Positions 3,871 through 14,622 are shown, counted from the first letter of the stretch. The stretch is 40,872 nucleotides of DNA from Gammaproteobacteria bacterium (GCA_049664445.1 JBATFE010000468.1:1-40872); one strand, 5' to 3'. Numbers and translations are program-made. The notes: a model not told the origin generated them from the letters alone.

Positions 3871-4368
3871 TCAGTAGAAGAACATGTAACCTGCAGCGAC
3901 AACGACGATGGTAACAAGCAAATAGGTGAGCATATTGCCCTCATCCTGTTGCGCAGCAATGGCCGAGATGAACTCCCGGGCCTCTTGTACCAGTTCCTGA
4001 ATCGCGGCCTGGTGTTTGACCATAACTTCCTTGACGTTGGCACGTTTCAGCTCCGCTTCCCTCGCGACGTCCTCACGGGTCGTGTGATAGTGTTTTACGT
4101 TTACGTACTTGCTCCCGGACATGGCCTCGTCATTTCCGGCTGACATCAATTCATCCTCCAGTTGCTGTATCCGGTCTCTTTCCCACGCGTTGATGTTTGC
4201 TAACTTCCGTTCATAGACTGTATGACACAGTCTGAATATAGCGTCACCACGTCCCTGCTCCGCCCAGGAGACCAGCTTCTCGGGTGCTATTAACTCGGCC
4301 GTCACAGCACCAGGGCTTGCTGTCTCTGAATACAGGTGCTGCGGGAGTTCCAATTCGGATATCTTCAT
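3871..4368 (-). CDS. Hypothetical tail-anchored protein with a charged, probably coiled-coil region
   Basis: The ORF ends in a single C-terminal TM helix (LTYLLVTIVVVAAGYMFFY), preceded by a charged helical region (ERDRIQQLEDEL..., AREAELKRANVKEV). The ATG at 4368 is preferred over the GTG at 4395. No family recognised. Confidence 0.5.
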   Translation of the reverse strand: MKISELELPQHLYSETASPGAVTAELIAPEKLVSWAEQGRGDAIFRLCHTVYERKLANINAWERDRIQQLEDELMSAGNDEAMSGSKYVNVKHYHTTREDVAREAELKRANVKEVMVKHQAAIQELVQEAREFISAIAAQQDEGNMLTYLLVTIVVVAAGYMFFY

Positions 4369-4390
4369 GTAGTGCCCCGGATGGCTGATT

Positions 4391-4408
4391 ATCACAATAT
4401 ATTGTGAT
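4391..4408. promoter_or_regulatory. Perfect 18-bp palindrome ATCACAATATATTGTGAT, a candidate operator
   Basis: Self-complementary on direct reading. It sits about 23 nt upstream of the 4368 start, in the divergent region shared with the MerR/ParA operon. Confidence 0.45.
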
Positions 4409-4614
4409 CCACCTTCAATTTGGGGTCATTTTACGGAATACGGTGAGAGATACCAATACCTGTCTTCGAACTGGCGGTACAAGGCGCTTTGTTGCCACAG
4501 CCGCGCCTTTACAGCGTTGCTCGGGAGCTCTGTTCCAGCACTCGGGTGATGGCATGGTTATACCAACCCTCAAACATAAAAAGCCGACAAAAGCAGGAAT
4601 TATTGTTGCATTTC

Positions 4615-4642
4615 TTGACAAATGTGGCCGCTCAAGCATAAT
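4615..4642 (+). promoter_or_regulatory. Near-consensus sigma70-type promoter for the MerR/ParA operon
   Basis: TTGACA (4615-4620), a 16-nt spacer, then CATAAT (4637-4642), about 40 nt upstream of the TTG start at 4681. Confidence 0.5.
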
Positions 4643-4680
4643 GGCCGAAATTCAGTTGACCTCAACGAGGATTTTTTCTA

Positions 4681-5157
4681 TTGGATCAGGGGTTTTCCAC
4701 AAGCCAGGTCTGCAGGCTCACCGGTCTGAGTGCGCGACAGCTGGGATACTGGCGCAAGACCGGGCTGCTCTCCCCGGCGCAACACACACCTGGCGGACAT
4801 GCCCGCTACAGTTTTATTGACCTCATCTCATTGAAAACCGCAAGCCGGCTGATCGCCGCGGGTGTTTCCGTACAACGCATCCGGCAATGCCTGCAGTCAT
4901 TAAGTCGCTTTCTGCCAAACACCGACACCCCGCTTCAGGAACTCTCACTGGTGGCCACCGGCGATGTGGTGCTGGTATTGCGCAGTGGTGCCGCCTTTGA
5001 TGCCCTGACAGGTCAGGAATGGATACTCCAGGTAGCCGATTTTGAACGCGAGGCCCGGCAGTTGTTAAGCAATCACTCAGTGCCTCGTCAGCGGGAGCTT
5101 TTCAGGGAGCCCTCCGCCCCGAATTTGGAAAAAATAAATCGTTTAAGCCAGGGATAG
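4681..5157 (+). CDS. MerR-family helix-turn-helix protein, first gene of a 4-gene operon
   Basis: FSTSQVCRLTGLSARQLGYWRKTGLLSP...GGHARYSFIDLISLKTASRLIAAGVSVQRIRQCL is a typical MerR-type HTH plus wing. The HTH begins at residue 5, so the TTG at 4681 (GAGGA 9 nt upstream) is the only plausible start. Confidence 0.75.
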   Translation: MDQGFSTSQVCRLTGLSARQLGYWRKTGLLSPAQHTPGGHARYSFIDLISLKTASRLIAAGVSVQRIRQCLQSLSRFLPNTDTPLQELSLVATGDVVLVLRSGAAFDALTGQEWILQVADFEREARQLLSNHSVPRQRELFREPSAPNLEKINRLSQG

Positions 5158-5262
5158 CCGTTGTCAATAATCAGGGCCAAGCGATACCAGTGGCGGGCTA
5201 CCGGTATCCGGATACCCGTATAAAGCGTGGTTTGTAAACAGGCCACGATGGAGGAAGCCAGC

Positions 5263-6354
5263 ATGCATGTCATTGCAATTGTCAACCAGAAGGGAGGCTG
5301 TGGAAAAACCACCACGGCCATCAATCTTTCCGCTGCACTGGGGCAGCAGAATGCACGCGTATTACTCATCGATATGGACCCCCAGGGGCATGCATCGCTG
5401 GGACTCGGGGTGGCGGGTGCCGAACTGGCGGGTCTCTATGAGCTACTGAAAGGCGAGTGTCGCCTGGACGAGGTCATCCAGTCGGGCGTCACCCGGGGCG
5501 TGGACCTCATCCCGGGTAATATTTCACTGGCTGCAGCCGAGCATTTGCTTGCCGATCAAGCGGACAGGGATCGTCAGTTGGCACGGCATCTGGCGATGCT
5601 CGGGGGGCGTTATGACTGTGTAGTCCTCGATTGCCCGCCGGCGCTGGGTCTGCTGTCGGTGAATGCATTGCGGGCCGCAGACCGTGTCGTGATACCGGTG
5701 GAGCCCAGCCTCTATTCACTGGATGGTATCGAGCGCTTGCGGGAGACCATCTACCTGCTTGCCAGCCAGTATGACATGCAGCCATCCGTTACCCTGCTTG
5801 CCAACATGTTCGACGTCCGCACGCGCATCGCTCGCAACATGTTCGAGATGCTGGAGTCACTCCCGATCGATCTGTGTGCTACCCGGATACGCAATTCTGT
5901 ACGCGTGCGTGAAGCGGCCTGTCACGGGGCTCCATTGACCGATCATGCACCACGTGCCCCGGTAACCGGTGATTTCCGGAACCTGGCGGAGGAGCTGCTC
6001 GGTAGCATGCTGCAGCACGTGCGCAGTGAAAAGGCACACGCCATCGAAACACAAGCTGATAATCCTGCTGCCGCCACCATGATTACCGAAAGCGACAACC
6101 TGAAAGAAGTGGTGTTCCGCTTCGACAATACGAAATTTAAACGGGTGCAGATTGCCGGAGAATTCAATAACTGGGTTCCTGACAAGAACGTGGAAACCGA
6201 AATTCAGGATGGTGCCGTGCAGAAGAAACTGCGGGTGAGGCCCGGGGGATATGAATATCGTCTGATCATCGACGGTGTCTGGCAACAGGACCCGGCGAAT
6301 CCGAATGCGGCACCCAATGATATGGGGGAATACAATTCGCTATTAAACGTTTGA
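5263..6354 (+). CDS. ParA/Soj-type deviant Walker A ATPase fused to a C-terminal CBM48/AMPK-beta-like glycogen-binding domain
   Basis: N-terminus MHVIAIVNQKGGCGKTTTAINLSAAL (KGGxGKT with the signature lysine), then LLIDMDPQG and VVLDCPP. The C-terminal 85 aa (VVFRFDNTKFKRVQIAGEFNNWVPDK...GGYEYRLIIDGVWQQDPANP...GEYNSLLNV) align with the AMPK beta CBM (GSFNNW, YKFFVDGQW.HDP, VNNI). GGAGGA lies 7 nt upstream of the ATG at 5263. Confidence 0.85.
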   Translation: MHVIAIVNQKGGCGKTTTAINLSAALGQQNARVLLIDMDPQGHASLGLGVAGAELAGLYELLKGECRLDEVIQSGVTRGVDLIPGNISLAAAEHLLADQADRDRQLARHLAMLGGRYDCVVLDCPPALGLLSVNALRAADRVVIPVEPSLYSLDGIERLRETIYLLASQYDMQPSVTLLANMFDVRTRIARNMFEMLESLPIDLCATRIRNSVRVREAACHGAPLTDHAPRAPVTGDFRNLAEELLGSMLQHVRSEKAHAIETQADNPAAATMITESDNLKEVVFRFDNTKFKRVQIAGEFNNWVPDKNVETEIQDGAVQKKLRVRPGGYEYRLIIDGVWQQDPANPNAAPNDMGEYNSLLNV

Positions 6355-6365
6355 CGGGGGGAGTC

Positions 6366-6983
6366 ATGCACAATCCAGCTTGGCGGCCAGCCCGGATGCA
6401 TACCGGGCGTCTGGCCAGTATCCAGCATCACTTTATCGATGAACGCCCGGCAGTTCGCGACACCGGGAAGCAAAGGATCATCCATACCCTGCCGGTGCAC
6501 ATGGCAGTCGCGGCAGGGCATCCCGCCAATGCCTTGCAACCACACTACCTGGTGGATGCCTTGACCCGGCAGCTCAATATACAAACGTCTGCCGCTGCGG
6601 AGCACCCCGACTGGCAACTGGAGGCCATCCCGGCCGGGCGTAGAGCAACGAATGCCGACCGGGGTTTCATTCTGGTCTTTGCGACAGCGAATATCGAGGG
6701 TGTGCGCTTGGCATATGCCGGTATCAAACAGCTTTCCGCTGCGCCGTCACGTCGCTTTGGGGTGCTGTTCAGCGGTGCAGACGACGTTGAGTTCGCGCGC
6801 CACTGCCAGCAGCGACTGACATCCGGTGCCATGCGGTTTCTTGGCATCCGACTTCATGAACTGGGGCATTTGTCGGCTCCCGGGCCGGATTTCAGTGCAG
6901 ATCTGGCACGTCTGGCCACAGAGGTTTACCGGCTTTGGGGTGCTCATTCAATAGATAATCATCTGGAGGATACTCACACATGA
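6366..6983 (+). CDS. MinD/ParA-like protein lacking a recognisable Walker A (degenerate P-loop NTPase partner)
   Basis: The C-terminal two thirds (ADRGFILVFATANIEGVRLAYAGIKQL...RFGVLFSGADDVEFARHCQQRL...FLGIRLHELGHL) follow the MinD/FlhG layout (aD.vivvt.pe..s..dAYa.iK.l...lvvN...). No GKT or GKS motif occurs anywhere. The start is either ATG 6366 (GGGGGGA upstream) or TTG 6351. The stop overlaps the next ATG (ATGA). Confidence 0.6.
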   Translation: MHNPAWRPARMHTGRLASIQHHFIDERPAVRDTGKQRIIHTLPVHMAVAAGHPANALQPHYLVDALTRQLNIQTSAAAEHPDWQLEAIPAGRRATNADRGFILVFATANIEGVRLAYAGIKQLSAAPSRRFGVLFSGADDVEFARHCQQRLTSGAMRFLGIRLHELGHLSAPGPDFSADLARLATEVYRLWGAHSIDNHLEDTHT

Positions 6984-7498
6984 CATTACAAATTCATGCC
7001 GTCACGGAAATCGACTCATCTGACCTGCGCAGCCTGGTGGTCGACAATCTGGGTGCATTGCTTGGAGAAGGGGCCAGGCTCATCGAAAATATGCCGCAAA
7101 TAGATGGCTGCTGCCTTGCGACATCAGATACGCATAATGGCCCGGTGTTGCTCAGTTTCGATGCAGTCGATGCGCAGCGGGCATTGCTCACCGGTCTCGT
7201 CAGGTTAGATCAACTGGGCGGTGAAATGGCGGCATTGTTCCTGCAGGATTACCACCCGCCAACAGAGTTACTGGTACTGGCCCCGGAGGCACCTCCCGGG
7301 CTGACACTCTTCGGTGAAGCATGCCCCGTTAGCTGGCGGTGTATCCAGGTGCTGTCCGTTAATGGCGAGTTCGGCATGGTGATTGCCCCGGTCGTTGAAG
7401 AAACGGCCGCAGCAGCGCTCATTCCCCGGGAGCGTCAGCCGACGATCGTTGAATCAGTACTCAACCCGGAAGAAGAGCAGCACTTCAGTCAGCTATAG
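6980..7498 (+). CDS. Hypothetical protein, fourth gene of the MerR/ParA operon
   Basis: 172-aa ORF, translationally coupled to the preceding gene by an ATGA overlap at 6980-6983. Composition matches its neighbours. The C-terminal tail is acidic (NPEEEQHFSQL). No family recognised. Confidence 0.55.
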   Translation: MTLQIHAVTEIDSSDLRSLVVDNLGALLGEGARLIENMPQIDGCCLATSDTHNGPVLLSFDAVDAQRALLTGLVRLDQLGGEMAALFLQDYHPPTELLVLAPEAPPGLTLFGEACPVSWRCIQVLSVNGEFGMVIAPVVEETAAAALIPRERQPTIVESVLNPEEEQHFSQL

Positions 7499-8873: not shown

Positions 8874-9320
8874 CTGATTGAAAGATAAAGACACTCTCTT
8901 TTGATGCTTCTTCCGCTATTCATTTTTCGGCGCTTTCTAATGCTAATGGCCCTTTGGTGGGTAACCGCAAGACAATAGTCAAGACAGCCAATCATGCCCG
9001 GGAGTGTATATTTTATCTCGATACTTAAAAGCCTGAAGCTGTCCCATTGATGGACATCAACGCGACAATCTCCATAGGAGCCTGATTAGCTCGTTCGCTT
9101 GACCCAGCAGATTATTGCAGCCATACCATGTTCTCAATGTAATGGGGAGACTGATGAAGCATGATAAGAACGTCCGGTTCTGCTGCAATCCGCAACCCCT
9201 GTTCCGGTCATTCGTTTTTCAGAAATAACTGTTTTTTTATTAAACCTGGCCAGAACGTATATCTTTTGTCTTTGCCTGTCCGTTACCAGTAATAGAAGCT
9301 CAAGGATGTACCCCGGCGCT

Positions 9321-11246: not shown

Positions 11247-11679
11247 AATATTATTCTCAATAGTTCAATTCTTGTCCTGATAGCCTCATGAAGAACCGCT
11301 CTATGCATGGCCGCTGAACAATTTAATACTACCTTGTTCACCTGTCCCAGCCAATTGAAGACTAACGGAAATCAAATCATCACTTTAATCATGCCATGAC
11401 AATCAATAGTCACCGCTGTATTGGTCCACCCGCAGCACATCGTTACACCGTAACCGAACCATTATTCATAACCACATGTTTTCACTAGAATTGTCTTGAT
11501 AACGGGTTGCTATGGCCCCGTAAAACACTGAATTACTTATTGATTCAGACTGAATCCCGTTAAAGTTTGCACCCCTTCGCCCGATTGTGTCTGAGAGATG
11601 ACCGCTTTCAGCGGAGTACGTCATCTTGCTTATTAACATTCATAGCTGTTCAGGCATAAAAGGATGGGCGAGCAATACG

Positions 11680-14622
11680 ATGTATGAGGATTACGAGAAG
11701 GGGGGCTCTCCTGGACAGCTAACCGAACGACAAATGTCGTCAGCCGCTACCGGTCCCTCTACCAGCGAACACCGCAGCATCAATCGTTGGCAGTTCCGTG
11801 CCGACCAGGTCCGAATGCTGTACCAGCAGGTACAGATAGAATTAATCATCAGCATGCTGTTTTCCGTCATCGTTATAACAGTGTTCTGGAACAGCATGCC
11901 GCACTCGCTCCTCATTGGCTGGGCTACCGCCGTTATTATCAGCGTTTGCATGCGCATACTGTTCATATCGGGTAATTCAACCGACAATACTGGCGACAGA
12001 ATTAACGTTTGGGGACAGCACTACATCACCGGTGCCGCAGTCTCGGGGATGTGCTGGGGAAGTCTGGGTATTATCGCTTCGATACACGGTGATCTGATAC
12101 AACAGATATTCGTTTTTGTCGTACTCGCAGCAATGTCCCTGACTGCTTTCGTTTCCATGCAATCTTCACCCAAAACCATCAGCGCCTTCGTGCTACCGAC
12201 ATTATTACCCTCAACCGCCTGGTTTTTCTATCAAGGCACTACGCTGTCACTGGCAATCGGGGCAGTTGCAATAATCTTTTCAGTGGTCATGCTGTTTTCG
12301 TCGCGCAGCATGCGCAATATTCTCGCTAAATCTTTCAGTCTTGGCTCACACAACACCGACCTCATCAAGAAGCTTGTTGTCACACGTGAATCTGCGGAAA
12401 AGTCCAGGAAGCATGCGGAGGAAATGAATCTAAAGCTTCAGGAACAAATGCAGGTAAGGCAACAGGCTGAAGAGCGAACACGCAAATCCGAGCAACGCAT
12501 GACTGCCATCTTTGACAGCATGCAGGATATCATTTACCAAACTGACATCAATGGTCGCATCCAGTGGACCACACCTTCTATAAAACAGTTACTGGGCTAT
12601 GAACCGCATGAATTGCTTGATAACAATATCAAGGACTTTTACGTATGCATCACCGAGCATGACGACCTGAAACATTCTCTGGATGTCAATTACGGTCGCT
12701 TGCAGCACTTTGAGACATGCCTGCAACACAAGGACGGCACACATATATGGATATCGGAAAACTCACACTACAACTATGACGAAAACGGTGACCCCATCGG
12801 CATAGAAGGTACCATTCGCGATATCACCGCCCTGAAGCAGGCGAAAGAAGCACTGCACCAGGAGAAAGAGCGCGCCCAGGTCACACTCGGATCAATTGGT
12901 GACGGCGTGATCACCACCGACCTGCAGGGCAACATCGAGTATATGAATACTGTTGCCGAGCAGTCGACCGGCTGGAAACTGCAGGACGCCCGCAGCAAAC
13001 CAATGTCCGAGGTATTCAGGCTTGTTGAGGAAAAATCCCTTGAATCACCGCCGGATCCCGCTGCACTCTGCCTTGAGCAGGGTAAAAGCACCATGCTTGC
13101 AGGACACCTGTTACTGCTCCACCGCTACAGAAACCAGAAACTGTCAGTCGAAGTGAACGCCTCCCCCATTCGTGATTCGAAAGCGGATATTTCCGGTGTC
13201 GTGCTGGTTTTCCATGATGTGACAGTACTGCGTGGACTTGCCAAGAAGATGTCATACCAGGCAACCCATGATTCCCTGACCGGGCTTCTGAATCGACGCG
13301 AATTCGAAAATCGGGTTACACAGGCGATTGAAAACGCACGTACCGAAGACGTACGACATGCTATTTGCTACCTGGATCTGGATAACTTCAAGGTCGTCAA
13401 TGATACCAGCGGCCACTTTGCCGGTGATGAACTGCTCAAGCAATTAACCATCAAGCTGCGCATAGAATTGCGCGAGGCGGATACCCTCGCAAGGCTGGGT
13501 GGTGATGAATTCGGCATACTCCTGGAAGGCTGTTCGCTGGAGAATGCACACGAACCAGCCGAGGCAATCAGAAAAGTCGTCGAGGACTTCAGGTTTGTCT
13601 GGGATAACAGGTCATTCAGAATTGGCGCCAGCATCGGGTTGGTCCAGATTACCCAGGACAGCGGCACACTCACCGACTTGTTAAGTGCTGCTGATTCTGC
13701 CTGCTACATAGCCAAAGAACAGGGCCGAAACCGTGTGCATGTCTATCAACCTGATGACGAGGCTGTCAGCGAGCGTCATGGCCAGATGCAATGGGTGCAG
13801 CGCATACAGGATGTCCTTGAACAGAATCGTTTCAGGCTGTTCTTTCAGCCGATCGCAAGACTTAACCGTGCTGCAGACGAGAAAAACCTGACACACGGGG
13901 AAGTTCTGCTTCGCATGCTCGATGAAAACAACAAAATAGTTGGCCCTGGATCATTTATTCCTGCTGCCGAGCGATACCAGTTGATGCCTGCAATCGATCA
14001 ATGGGTTGTAACGAATACCTTCAAGATGCTGACGCTGGACAAGAAAAAGGTTGCAGAACATGTCAGCTCCTGCTGCATCAATCTTTCAGGACAATCAATA
14101 TCCGATATCCGGTTTATGGATTTTTTGATCGGCGAAATAAATAATAGCGGGGTACAGCCGGAATTACTGGTCTTTGAAATTACCGAGACGGCTGTTATCG
14201 CAAACCTGTGCAATGCATCAAAATTAATAACTACACTACGTGAAATGGGATGCCGGTTTGCGCTGGATGATTTTGGAGTTGGCTTGAGTTCCTTCGGTTA
14301 TCTAAAAAACCTTGCCGTTGACTACCTGAAACTTGACGGCTGCTTCGTGAAAAACATGGTTGTCGATAACATTGATCAATCCATGGTGGCTGCGATCAAC
14401 CAGATTGGTCATACCATGGGCATCAAAACCATCGCTGAATTTGTTGAAGACGAGGAAACCCTCGAAGCCGTTCGCAATGTAGGTGTTGACTATGCCCAAG
14501 GCTATATCATCGCAAAACCAATACCTATTGAGCTAGCCCTGTATAGCGAACCAATTGATATCGGGACAAATGGAGAACAGCAGCAACCGGCCAGTCTCAA
14601 GACCGGATCGATAATTCACTGA
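11680..14622 (+). CDS. Membrane sensor with PAS-PAS-GGDEF-EAL domains (c-di-GMP synthase/phosphodiesterase)
   Basis: N-terminal block of about 6 TM helices, a coiled-coil linker and two PAS-like segments. RLGGDEFGILL has READ (RxxD I-site) 5 residues upstream. EAL domain motifs are QPI...GEVLLR, EITE, DDFGVGLSSFGYLK, AEFVE and QGY. The start is uncertain (TTG 11626, ATG 11680 or ATG 11734). Confidence 0.85.
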   Translation: MYEDYEKGGSPGQLTERQMSSAATGPSTSEHRSINRWQFRADQVRMLYQQVQIELIISMLFSVIVITVFWNSMPHSLLIGWATAVIISVCMRILFISGNSTDNTGDRINVWGQHYITGAAVSGMCWGSLGIIASIHGDLIQQIFVFVVLAAMSLTAFVSMQSSPKTISAFVLPTLLPSTAWFFYQGTTLSLAIGAVAIIFSVVMLFSSRSMRNILAKSFSLGSHNTDLIKKLVVTRESAEKSRKHAEEMNLKLQEQMQVRQQAEERTRKSEQRMTAIFDSMQDIIYQTDINGRIQWTTPSIKQLLGYEPHELLDNNIKDFYVCITEHDDLKHSLDVNYGRLQHFETCLQHKDGTHIWISENSHYNYDENGDPIGIEGTIRDITALKQAKEALHQEKERAQVTLGSIGDGVITTDLQGNIEYMNTVAEQSTGWKLQDARSKPMSEVFRLVEEKSLESPPDPAALCLEQGKSTMLAGHLLLLHRYRNQKLSVEVNASPIRDSKADISGVVLVFHDVTVLRGLAKKMSYQATHDSLTGLLNRREFENRVTQAIENARTEDVRHAICYLDLDNFKVVNDTSGHFAGDELLKQLTIKLRIELREADTLARLGGDEFGILLEGCSLENAHEPAEAIRKVVEDFRFVWDNRSFRIGASIGLVQITQDSGTLTDLLSAADSACYIAKEQGRNRVHVYQPDDEAVSERHGQMQWVQRIQDVLEQNRFRLFFQPIARLNRAADEKNLTHGEVLLRMLDENNKIVGPGSFIPAAERYQLMPAIDQWVVTNTFKMLTLDKKKVAEHVSSCCINLSGQSISDIRFMDFLIGEINNSGVQPELLVFEITETAVIANLCNASKLITTLREMGCRFALDDFGVGLSSFGYLKNLAVDYLKLDGCFVKNMVVDNIDQSMVAAINQIGHTMGIKTIAEFVEDEETLEAVRNVGVDYAQGYIIAKPIPIELALYSEPIDIGTNGEQQQPASLKTGSIIH

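Follow-up and report, generated by a model that had tools for sequence, protein, structure and literature searches.

Does a bacterial ParA-type ATPase that carries its own carbohydrate-binding module serve to manage the cell's glycogen? This question is raised by positions 4615-7498 of a 40,872-nucleotide stretch of a Gammaproteobacteria bacterium genome (the window, below), where four plus-strand genes, here called g1 to g4, encode a MerR-type protein, a ParA-type ATPase fused to a CBM48 domain, a MinD-fold protein and an orphan. ParA/MinD ATPases are a general bacterial means of placing chromosomes, plasmids, carboxysomes and chemoreceptor arrays, and to our knowledge there is no positioning system of this type for glycogen, which of all carbon stores is found most widely.

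Gene set and layout of the locus

The ORFs of all four genes were found again, as was a sigma-70-type promoter before them (TTGACA-16-CATAAT, 4615..4642, plus strand, matching at 11 of 12 positions), bearing out the earlier note's reading of four same-strand genes behind a near-consensus promoter. The first gene, g1, occupies 4681..5157 (plus strand) with a TTG start. The real start of g2 is the ATG at 5263, which follows GGAGGA and agrees with every homologue, and not the listed GTG at 5227; its stop codon falls at 6352-6354, as its previously given end at 6354 implies. For g3 (6366..6983, plus strand) starts at 6351 and 6366 had both been entertained: the close homologues, 94 out of 94, begin MHNPAW, so the ATG at 6366, preceded by GGGGGGAG, is the start and the TTG at 6351 is unused. 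Description of the genes as tightly packed holds for g3 and g4 (6980..7498, plus strand), which do share the reported ATGA at 6980-6983, but not for g1 and g2, which are set apart by a 105-nt spacer. This spacer is structured and conserved (5183..5246, plus strand; hairpins at 5183-5221 and 5227-5246), with 85% column identity and one compensatory pair across nine close loci. At the same position distant loci have a GC hairpin followed by a T-run, a classic intrinsic terminator, so that expression of g1 may be partly independent of that of g2-g4. Current annotation of the four proteins goes no further than 'AAA family ATPase' or 'hypothetical protein'.

The ATPase and its carbohydrate-binding module

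The N-terminal domain of g2 (residues 1-245; 5263..5997, plus strand) is a Soj/ParA-type ATPase with a deviant Walker A motif. It matches Pfam AAA_31 at 2.8e-50, and its closest solved structures are ParA (8ray, 2.6e-41), T. thermophilus Soj (1wcv, 1.2e-38) and H. pylori Soj (1.8e-32), with McdA also among its solved homologues (6noo, 8.9e-16). The Walker A reads NQKGGCGKTT; in an alignment of 34 sequences K10, G11, G12, G14, K15 and T16 are invariant, as are D37 and D39, and D123 is conserved in at least 90%. The KGGxxGK[ST] motif with its signature lysine, together with the Walker A' and B aspartates, thus assigns g2 to the ParA/Soj (SIMIBI-class) ATPases. A nearly invariant arginine, R216, aligns to the Arg of the 'NVRL' DNA-binding segment of Soj, and we infer that g2 binds nucleoid DNA non-specifically. 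The domain is followed by a linker (residues 246-283; 5998..6111, plus strand) of variable length and sequence, rich in long indels and devoid of conservation across the same 34-sequence alignment, as is expected of a tether.

The C-terminal part (residues 284-363 and the stop codon; 6112..6354, plus strand) is a CBM48 domain of the AMPK1_CBM family (PF16561), with a score (38.1 bits; 1.8e-9) above the 26.8-bit cut-off; among solved structures it matches the glycogen-binding domain of AMPK beta1 (1z0n, 3.4e-6) and SEX4 (5.8e-4). Residues W304, R333, W340, M/L354, G355 and N358 align to W100, K126, W133, L146, G147 and N150 of AMPK beta1, and across the 34 diverse sequences W304, W340, G355 and N358 are invariant while R333 (K126 in AMPK) is conserved in at least 90%. 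Mutation of W100 or K126 in AMPK beta1 abolishes glycogen binding, and mutation of W133 or G147 weakens it (PMC6274970). The g2 module accordingly shares both its Pfam family and its contact residues (W, K/R, W, G, N) with the CBMs of AMPK beta and of the SEX4/LSF glucan phosphatases, and would be expected to bind alpha-glucan. In those proteins, as here, the CBM is an appendage, there of a regulatory or enzymatic protein that it targets to glycogen or starch or equips to sense them; in the present case, by contrast, the fusion partner is a bacterial ParA ATPase, for which the literature searched holds no precedent. In a plasmid/chromid collection, the nearest relative of this CBM is encoded by itself, in an ORF that immediately precedes a GH77 4-alpha-glucanotransferase.

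A pseudo-ATPase and an orphan as conserved partners

The 205-residue product of g3 has no Pfam or NCBIfam match. Its AlphaFold2 model (pLDDT 77.5, core above 90) retrieves FlhG as the best Foldseek match (4rz3, 1.4e-6), followed by FleN and MinD, and a profile of the family matches FleN (8pb9, 6.3e-12) and FlhG (7.8e-8) among solved structures. The loop following beta1 reads AAGHPANALQ, and no member of the g3 family has the Walker A pattern G..G.GK[ST]. The search with g3 retrieved a single Walker A sequence, P0395 (GKGGVGKT), which is a genuine MinD/ParA-type protein and stands among the weakest matches. By predicted fold and by profile, g3 is thus a FleN/FlhG-derived pseudo-ATPase, which from its sequence should be unable to bind ATP. 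It shares the fold of FlhG and of FleN, MinD-like ATPases that act in flagellar number and placement (FlhG) and as the anti-activator of FleQ (FleN), with homology extending over FleN residues 143-230, but differs from both in its lack of a Walker A, of a flagellar gene context and of an FlhF or FleQ partner, and in its N-terminal motif (RLAxISHHF, where theirs is DQAxxLR). That motif belongs to an N-terminus that is disordered and yet conserved, NPAWRPA...RLAxI(S/Q)HHF (nt 6366-6440).

The 172-residue g4 product appears to be an alpha/beta protein with a disordered C-terminal tail (AlphaFold2 pLDDT 71). It yields no match in Pfam, NCBIfam or PADLOC, none in a profile search of the PDB and no significant one in structure searches (best 0.047 in the PDB and 0.015 in BFVD). 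Its C-terminal end nevertheless bears a motif, L[STN]xEE[ED]x[FYH]F..[LI] (nt 7460-7495), that is conserved in distant loci. Profile and fold searches have therefore recovered the composition first proposed for this locus: a MerR-type protein; an ATPase that itself carries a carbohydrate-binding module, scoring above the family cut-off with its contact residues kept; a degenerate second P-loop protein, with a MinD fold and no Walker A; and a fourth protein devoid of any recognisable domain.

The MerR-type protein and its candidate operator

The 158-residue g1 product has an N-terminal winged HTH of the MerR type (Pfam MerR_1, 1.6e-14, spanning 68 of the 69 profile positions). Its profile matches in the PDB include CvkR, GlnR, TnrA and CueR, with alignments that end at residue ~79; the best is to CvkR/Alr3614 (7xn2, 4e-12), within the HTH only. 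The C-terminal part is conserved and non-canonical, and looks beta-rich from its sequence. Across the family g1 is 50-60% identical, the best conserved of the three partners of g2, with invariant R19, Q20, Y23, W24 and R25, and its tail motif Q-x-[ED]-L-F (nt 5089-5103) is found in all loci.

Classic MerR regulators have their operator in an over-long 19-20 bp spacer between the -35 and -10 boxes and activate through DNA distortion. Here the spacer is 16 bp, and the candidate operator of g1, an inverted repeat GACAA-N12-TTGTT (4586..4607, centred at about -52), lies upstream of the -35 box, from which a T-rich tract separates it. The -35 box and the ATAAT do not vary among nine close loci, the TTGAC(A/T) box is retained in distant ones, and the arrangement GACAA-N11-13-TTGTC / T-tract / TTGACA recurs in nearly all loci, including Thiohalobacter and those with 44-50% ParA identity. 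The operator pattern has four matches in the window against 0.85 expected, of which only that at 4586..4607 adjoins a promoter. CvkR, a CAST repressor, and RacA, a chromosome anchor to which the g1 HTH is weakly similar (0.011), are MerR-type HTH proteins that likewise act without the classic spacer distortion; g1 differs from both in its unrelated C-terminal part and QxELF tail and in the palindrome upstream of -35. That almost every locus has this palindrome directly against its -35 box suggests that g1, by binding this putative operator, autoregulates the operon. The earlier note had placed the MerR protein where a ParB or adaptor would be expected, a role that finds no support in a single conserved palindrome beside the -35 box, which is the pattern of an operon regulator.

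Distribution and genomic neighbourhood

The same four-gene order was found in about 24 loci of different lineages, some of them retrieved by anchoring on the g3 N-terminal motif alone; they include Thiohalobacter sp. IOR34, and many of the hosts are sulfur-oxidising Gammaproteobacteria. The co-occurrence of the four genes, whose confinement to this one genome would by the earlier note have refuted its reading, is strict, and the order is kept down to 44% identity in ParA and 22-32% in g3 and g4, with a divergence that looks vertical. The module is chromosomal: the 40-kb window is core chromosome, the flanks vary between loci and consist of housekeeping genes, g3 and g4 have no match in 72,556 plasmids, and g3, searched singly, has none in 50,697 phage records. 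Genes for DsrE, rhodanese and cytochrome c are found near the module.

The further expectation that the set would track with glycogen genes was disappointed, for neither glgA/B/C/P/X nor other alpha-glucan genes occur in the window, nor are any represented in the 25 most frequent Pfam families of 150 flanking ORFs from 23 loci. Nor are carboxysome shell, Rubisco, chemotaxis or flagellar families recurrent among those 25; the window has no carboxysome shell or Rubisco families either, in contrast to the linkage to McdB and/or a carboxysome operon typical of McdA. Pfam and NCBIfam detect no ParB, KorB or RHH domain in g1, g3 or g4, and the single palindrome, at the promoter, does not constitute an iterated centromere. 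PADLOC returned no significant match for g3 or g4, marginal partial P-loop matches for g2 (2.1e-4 and 5e-4) and a match of the g1 HTH to mad1. In agreement with the earlier note, the literature searched describes no system of this composition.

Possible functions of the module

We consider the module best explained as a self-contained, chromosomal system of the ParA/MinD type whose ATPase carries its own candidate cargo-binding domain. That this system couples alpha-glucan granules to the nucleoid is our tentative preference, a reading that could quite possibly be right. ATP-bound g2 would dimerise in the manner of Soj and bind nucleoid DNA non-specifically, and the two flexibly tethered CBM48 modules of the dimer would bind cytoplasmic alpha-glucan (glycogen) particles, so that granules would be held on and spread over the nucleoid rather than being excluded to the poles. 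The predicted nucleotide-blind g3 and the orphan g4 would be partners that set the hydrolysis and release cycle of g2, contacting the ATPase or each other through their conserved terminal peptides, and g1 would control expression of the module from the GACAA-N11-13-TTGTC palindrome. A somewhat doubtful but still credible extension is that this is the first dedicated bacterial system for active positioning or partitioning of glycogen granules, combining direct cargo binding by CBM48, governance by a pseudo-ATPase and an orphan via terminal motifs, and non-canonical MerR control. The granule hypothesis of the earlier note thus gains from the composition, the co-occurrence and the CBM residues, but not from glg linkage, and with no glycogen genes linked, the CBM fusion is its sole basis. 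FleN, the closest characterised relative of g3, regulates a transcription factor and is not a positioning factor, which counts against positioning. In every characterised ParA system known to us it is a partner that carries the cargo-binding domain; placing it on the ATPase, as proposed here, does not lead straightforwardly to a classical Brownian ratchet.

The systems McdAB, ParC/PpfA, PomXYZ and MipZ also employ a ParA-type ATPase for non-DNA cargo together with small, poorly conserved partners, as is putatively the case here. They are linked to the cargo through a separate adaptor, which also stimulates the ATPase, whereas our module has a putative cargo domain fused to the ATPase, a degenerate MinD paralogue as partner and no carboxysome or chemotaxis genes nearby. 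The proposed outcome, a storage inclusion tied to the nucleoid and thereby evenly distributed and inherited, resembles that of PhaM in Ralstonia, a tether between PHB granules and the nucleoid that is not an ATPase system and has no known homology to the module, and that of polyphosphate granules, whose spacing is also nucleoid-associated. We know of no equivalent nucleoid-coupling system for glycogen. In E. coli, glycogen is described as excluded from the nucleoid, polar and asymmetrically inherited, and passages of the same article mentioning 'ParA' or 'positioning' deal with the nucleoid and the division site rather than with a system that positions glycogen (PMC12706056).

The likeness of g3 to FleN/FlhG opens a regulatory reading absent from the earlier note, in which nothing is positioned: the CBM would report glycogen load in the manner of AMPK, whose CBM has been shown to sense glycogen (PMC6274970), and g2 with the FleN-like g3 would bind or release g1 as FleN antagonises FleQ, so that the module, and perhaps a regulon beyond it, is transcribed according to the state of the carbon stores. 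The profile match of g3 to an anti-activator, with FlhG and FleN as the best matches of its fold, is in keeping with this, as are the invariant presence of the transcription-factor-type g1 as the most conserved partner, the conserved candidate operator at its own promoter and the structured spacer or terminator between g1 and g2-g4, a common feature of regulators. We nonetheless hold it unlikely: the anti-activator function of FleN is ATP-dependent and g3 is predicted not to bind ATP, the g2 ATPase is Soj-like and not FleN-like, and the operator is a single copy at the module's promoter, its three other matches in the window lying away from promoters. Positioning of some other cargo, be it a DNA locus, a protein assembly or an inclusion of a different kind, with g3 and g4 as the true adaptors and the CBM48-like beta-sandwich as a protein-protein module or a binder of a non-glycogen glycan, strikes us as improbable without being far-fetched. 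It would fit the missing link to glycogen genes in window and flanks, the conserved, adaptor-like g3 and g4 with their terminal peptide motifs, and the several kinds of inclusion in sulfur-oxidiser hosts with DsrE, rhodanese and cytochrome c genes near the module; invariant carbohydrate-contact residues in 34 diverse sequences are, however, hard to explain without glucan binding, and the flanks have no recurrent carboxysome, chemotaxis or flagellar genes.

Two further readings follow. A partition ParA of the usual chromosomal or plasmid kind, with its ParB and parS elsewhere and the CBM and neighbouring genes incidental, is suggested by the closeness of the g2 ATPase domain to chromosomal Soj/ParA and by a source annotation of 'chromosome partitioning protein'. 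Indeed, the module shares with ParABS (Soj-Spo0J, type Ib plasmid partition) a close Soj homologue with a signature-lysine Walker A and an aligned DNA-binding Arg, and a small DNA-binding protein encoded beside the ATPase, whose candidate site adjoins the promoter. It departs from ParABS in having no ParB (ParBc or RHH), iterated centromere or plasmid location, in the carbohydrate-binding module on its ATPase and in two extra conserved partners, the pseudo-ATPase and the orphan; as the fusion and three partner genes are strictly co-inherited across large distances, amid variable housekeeping flanks that offer no gidAB-parAB-type context, we find this account very improbable. We give still less credence to a mobile-element or anti-phage defence module made up of an NTPase, a possibly nuclease-like g4 and an HTH regulator. 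The weak, non-significant Foldseek matches of g4 lean to PD-(D/E)xK nucleases and the g1 HTH resembles mad1 and CvkR, but g4 lacks conserved catalytic D...(D/E)xK residues, and the PADLOC results for g2-g4, the plasmid (g3, g4) and phage (g3) searches, the vertical-looking divergence and the housekeeping neighbours all speak against defence.

Implications for bacterial glycogen

According to the E. coli study cited above, glycogen accumulates at the old pole, biasing division as well as inheritance (PMC12706056). That a ParA-CBM48 module is conserved suggests active management of glycogen in some bacteria, and the module may be an undescribed machine for positioning or sensing this polymer. 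It offers two mechanistic novelties, a cargo-binding domain on the ATPase and a pseudo-ATPase paralogue as partner. Were the positioning reading true, the module would represent a new ParA/MinD architecture, in which the motor itself binds the cargo and is regulated by a pseudo-enzyme; were the regulatory reading true, glycogen sensing in the style of AMPK would have a bacterial counterpart.

Architecture of the four-gene module

ORF calling in the 4615-7498 region of the window recovered four plus-strand genes, g1 to g4, and their composition as described in an earlier note on this DNA is borne out with a single caveat concerning the g1-g2 spacing. The module is headed by a promoter at 4615-4642 (+; TTGACA-16-CATAAT), which had been called near-consensus and indeed matches at 11 of 12 positions. 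The first gene, g1 (4681-5157, +), has a TTG start and codes for a protein with a MerR-type helix-turn-helix (HTH; MerR_1, 1.6e-14). Tight packing had been claimed for the whole operon, but a 105-nt spacer separates g1 from g2. The ATG at 5263 (+) is the g2 start shared by all homologues, with GGAGGA seven bases before it, the listed start being GTG 5227. The g2 product (ParA-CBM) joins a ParA-type ATPase (AAA_31, 2.8e-50; CbiA, 4.5e-19) to an AMPK1_CBM domain at its C-terminus, which scores 38.1 bits (cut-off, 26.8). For g3, which is not matched by any Pfam or NCBIfam model, starts at 6351 and 6366 had both been entertained; the ATG at 6366 (+), preceded by GGGGGGAG and lying 11 nt past the g2 stop, is the start, as MHNPAW forms the N-terminus in 94/94 close homologues. 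The ATGA at 6980-6983 (+) is common to g3 and g4, as previously reported.

Phyletic spread and genomic context

At 90% identity, the ParA-CBM48 fusions fall into more than 100 clusters, whose source annotations go no further than "AAA family ATPase" or "chromosome partitioning protein". Neighborhood look-ups and scans identified the order MerR, ParA-CBM, g3 and g4 on a MAG contig of 450 kb and on the complete Thiohalobacter sp. IOR34 chromosome (module proteins WP_289931756.1 and WP_289931755.1; identities to the window: ParA 54%, g1 58%, g3 and g4 33% each), and further MAGs contain the four genes in the identical order. A scan of genome contigs with a narrow peptide pattern returned close relatives only. 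Distant g3 relatives were obtained by an exhaustive HMM search (97 matches among 1.84 billion representatives), and metagenome contigs were then retrieved solely by the N-terminal motif of these relatives; all such loci of sufficient length encode g1, a full-length ParA-CBM (44-49% identity), g3 and g4 with the order unchanged. Co-occurrence outside the source genome, which the earlier note had singled out for checking, is seen, in all, for the full set at about 24 non-redundant loci from different lineages, with the order kept. One lineage (loci L003/L004) lacks g4: its g1 and ParA-CBM are accompanied by a g3 of greater length (234 aa), and the next gene instead codes for a cNMP-binding regulator. 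The MAG MFD02923.bin.2.38 contains the module twice, on two contigs (L011 and L013). In the second copy the N-terminus of ParA is diverged or truncated, which could reflect a paralog, strain heterogeneity or decay.

The named hosts are gammaproteobacteria, namely Thiohalobacterales and one Ectothiorhodospiraceae MAG, and the carriers include a cultured host. The flanks comprise housekeeping genes that vary by lineage, with DsrE, rhodanese and cytochrome c genes often close to the module. The window itself is core chromosome, with the his operon, tatC, trkAH, ntrXY, def-fmt-rsmB, dprA, topA and hemF. An origin from plasmids or phages was dropped as a candidate, since searches of 72,556 plasmid records for g3 and g4, and of 50,697 phage records for g3, gave no match. 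Several lineages encode large PAS-GGDEF-EAL proteins at a distance of up to ~5 kb from the module (window 11626-14622; L003, L005, L030; others); they occur in 5-6 of 23 flank sets, and as such genes are common, this could be due to chance.

A ParA ATPase bearing a putative glycogen-binding domain

The g2 ATPase displays the deviant Walker A motif NQKGGCGKTT. Across 34 sequences (49-91% identity), its signature lysine K10 along with G11, G12, G14, K15, T16, D37 and D39 are invariant, and D123, the aspartate of Walker B, comes close to invariance. Its nearest solved relatives are the chromosomal ParA/Soj proteins (8ray, 2.6e-41; Thermus thermophilus Soj, 1.2e-38), with MinD and McdA being much weaker matches. 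The nearly invariant R216 aligns with the arginine in the "NVRL" segment of Soj, which corresponds to the DNA-binding R189 of Bacillus subtilis Soj. Residues 246-283 constitute a linker highly variable in both length and sequence, probably a flexible tether for the CBM48.

The last 80 residues of g2 match the glycogen-binding domain of AMPK beta1 (1z0n, 3.4e-6) and the glucan phosphatase SEX4. Reading the 1z0n alignment position by position, with conservation assessed over 34 sequences, AMPK W100, W133, G147 and N150 correspond to the invariant W304, W340, G355 and N358 of g2; K126 corresponds to R333 (at least 90% conserved) and L146 to the variable M354 (mostly L). In AMPK, glycogen binding by this domain is abolished by W100G and K126Q and weakened by W133L and G147R (PMC6274970). 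Within the plasmid/chromid records searched, the g2 CBM has as its closest relative an unannotated, 99-aa stand-alone AMPK1_CBM/CBM48 ORF on a chromid of Pseudoalteromonas sp. NC201 (L032 3962-4261, equivalent to NZ_CP022523 243674-243973), 9 bp upstream of a gene for a GH77 4-alpha-glucanotransferase. This pair is a small, independent piece of evidence connecting bacterial CBMs of the g2 subfamily with alpha-glucan metabolism.

g3, a P-loop-less relative of FleN/FlhG, and the orphan g4

The AlphaFold2 model of the 205-aa g3 protein (pLDDT 77.5; residues 36-196 mostly >90) has a beta-alpha-beta, NTPase-like core, for which Foldseek retrieved FlhG as the best PDB match (4rz3, 1.4e-6), followed by FleN and MinD. 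Likewise, FleN (6.3e-12, spanning FleN residues 143-230) and FlhG (7.8e-8) were recovered from PDB by a sequence profile built on 26 diverse members of the family. The kinship with MinD is visible only through these two routes, and hhalign of g3 against ParA-CBM gave a probability of just 0.25%. No Walker A motif (G..G.GK[ST]) was found in the g3 family among about 90 sequences checked; the sole instance, P0395, ranks among the weakest matches and is a genuine protein of MinD/ParA type. The loop after beta1 in g3 reads AAGHPANALQ. The earlier description of g3 as MinD-like without a Walker A thus holds, and both sequence and model identify it as a pseudo-ATPase derived from FleN/FlhG. Disorder is predicted for roughly the first 35 residues, which nevertheless contain the family hallmark RLAxI(S/Q)HHF(L/I)(S/D)E, with NPAWRPA additionally present in the window's clade; such conservation in a disordered segment is characteristic of short interaction motifs. 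The weak profile matches P0388, P0398, P0400, P0404, P0406 and P0407 include FlhG/FleN-like proteins with an N-terminal DQAxxLR activator motif, and have a degenerate Walker A (e.g., GAQDGMGATS) wherever the P-loop region is visible. Accordingly, P-loop-less FlhG relatives may extend beyond the g3 family.

The 172-aa g4 has no match in Pfam, NCBIfam or PADLOC, no significant Foldseek match in PDB or BFVD, and its profile has none among PDB sequences. Its AlphaFold2 model is of moderate quality (pLDDT 71, pTM 0.67), with an alpha/beta domain and a disordered tail. Weak matches tend toward a PD-(D/E)xK fold, which we rejected as the catalytic residues are not conserved. The extreme C-terminus displays L[STN]xEE[ED]x[FYH]F..[LI] across all lineages. 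Three module proteins have conserved terminal peptides (g1 tail, g3 N-terminus and g4 C-terminus).

g1 and the cis-elements

Of the three partners of ParA-CBM, g1 is the best conserved (50-60% identity versus ~25-33% for g3 and g4). Its C-terminal tail has a Q-x-[ED]-L-F motif in all homologs (window 5089-5103; residues 137-141), resembling the beta-sliding-clamp-binding pentapeptide QL[SD]LF, which hints, as a lead, at a link between this MerR-type protein and DnaN. The HTH residues R19, Q20, Y23, W24 and R25 are invariant, and the g1 profile matches solved structures in the HTH only: CvkR/Alr3614 (4e-12), GlnR/TnrA and, weakly, RacA. CvkR is a MerR-type repressor (PMC9938897).

Upstream of g1, an inverted repeat GACAA-N11-13-TTGTC (window 4586-4607) precedes a T-rich tract and then the -35 TTGACA, a layout found at the equivalent position in almost all loci, including Thiohalobacter and the most distant ones. 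The -35/-10 spacer is 16 bp; hence, the classic MerR spacer-distortion mechanism is inapplicable. In Thiohalobacter sp. IOR34 (CP128988; L002 9117-9374), a MITE-like insertion of ~258 bp with 23-bp terminal inverted repeats (CCTGTTAACACGATCCCAATGGG / CCCATTGGGATCGTGTTAACAGG) lies in the 5' leader between the operator/promoter and the g1 start, and in L030 (~9257-9310) tandem heptanucleotide copies, (GCCCGTC)n, directly precede the conserved operator. Separately, a perfect 18-bp palindrome, ATCACAATATATTGTGAT (window 4391-4408), at the 5' end of a divergent 174-aa ORF (3871-4395, -) may be the operator of that ORF, whose product is without a Pfam match and has a hydrophobic stretch at its end.

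The g1-g2 spacer (window 5183-5246) is 85% conserved among close loci, above much of the coding sequence, and has two hairpins, with covariation (one compensatory pair) too weak to call an RNA structure. In distant loci (L018, L019, L021, L023, L026-L028), it contains a GC hairpin plus T run, i.e., an intrinsic terminator. The level of g1 expression accordingly probably departs from that of g2-g4, and the terminator suggests attenuation or differential expression.

Functional interpretation

Based on domain content, the most economical reading, which could well be wrong, is that the module is a ParA-type system linking alpha-glucan granules to the nucleoid. The coupling would be the work of g2, whose catalytic motifs are intact and whose tethered CBM48 has its glycan-contact residues intact; the ATPase cycle would be adjusted by g3 and g4, with expression of the module under g1. 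To our knowledge, no characterized ParA system has the cargo binder on the ATPase itself; g2 differs from all of them in this respect, and therefore the mechanism may be one of dynamic tethering rather than the classical partner-driven ratchet. The glycogen reading is weakest in that no neighborhood link to glycogen (glg) genes, for which tracking with the module had been raised earlier, was found in the window or among the recurrent families of 23 module flanks. Two other readings are conceivable, if doubtful, and equally so: that g2 and g3 modulate g1 as a switch sensing glycogen status, by analogy with FleN-FleQ and AMPK, or that the cargo is a different one, with the CBM-like domain in another role. 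The lone conserved palindrome at the promoter of the module is more in keeping with autoregulation than with a centromere. Ordinary DNA partition is poorly supported and very improbable. A defense or mobile module, equally poorly supported, is still harder to credit: the PADLOC screen, on which we rejected a defense system, speaks against it, as does the absence of plasmid (g3, g4) or phage (g3) matches.

In Escherichia coli, glycogen is excluded from the nucleoid, collects at the old pole and is inherited asymmetrically, and the mentions of ParA or positioning considered here from that study concern no glycogen-placing system (PMC12706056). Neither ParA-CBM48 proteins nor ParA-based glycogen systems nor the g1-g4 gene set are described in the literature searched, in agreement with the earlier statement that no characterized system of such composition was known. 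The anatomy of the module is solid and widely conserved, and from its domain content we infer a ParA/MinD positioning or regulatory system of new composition.
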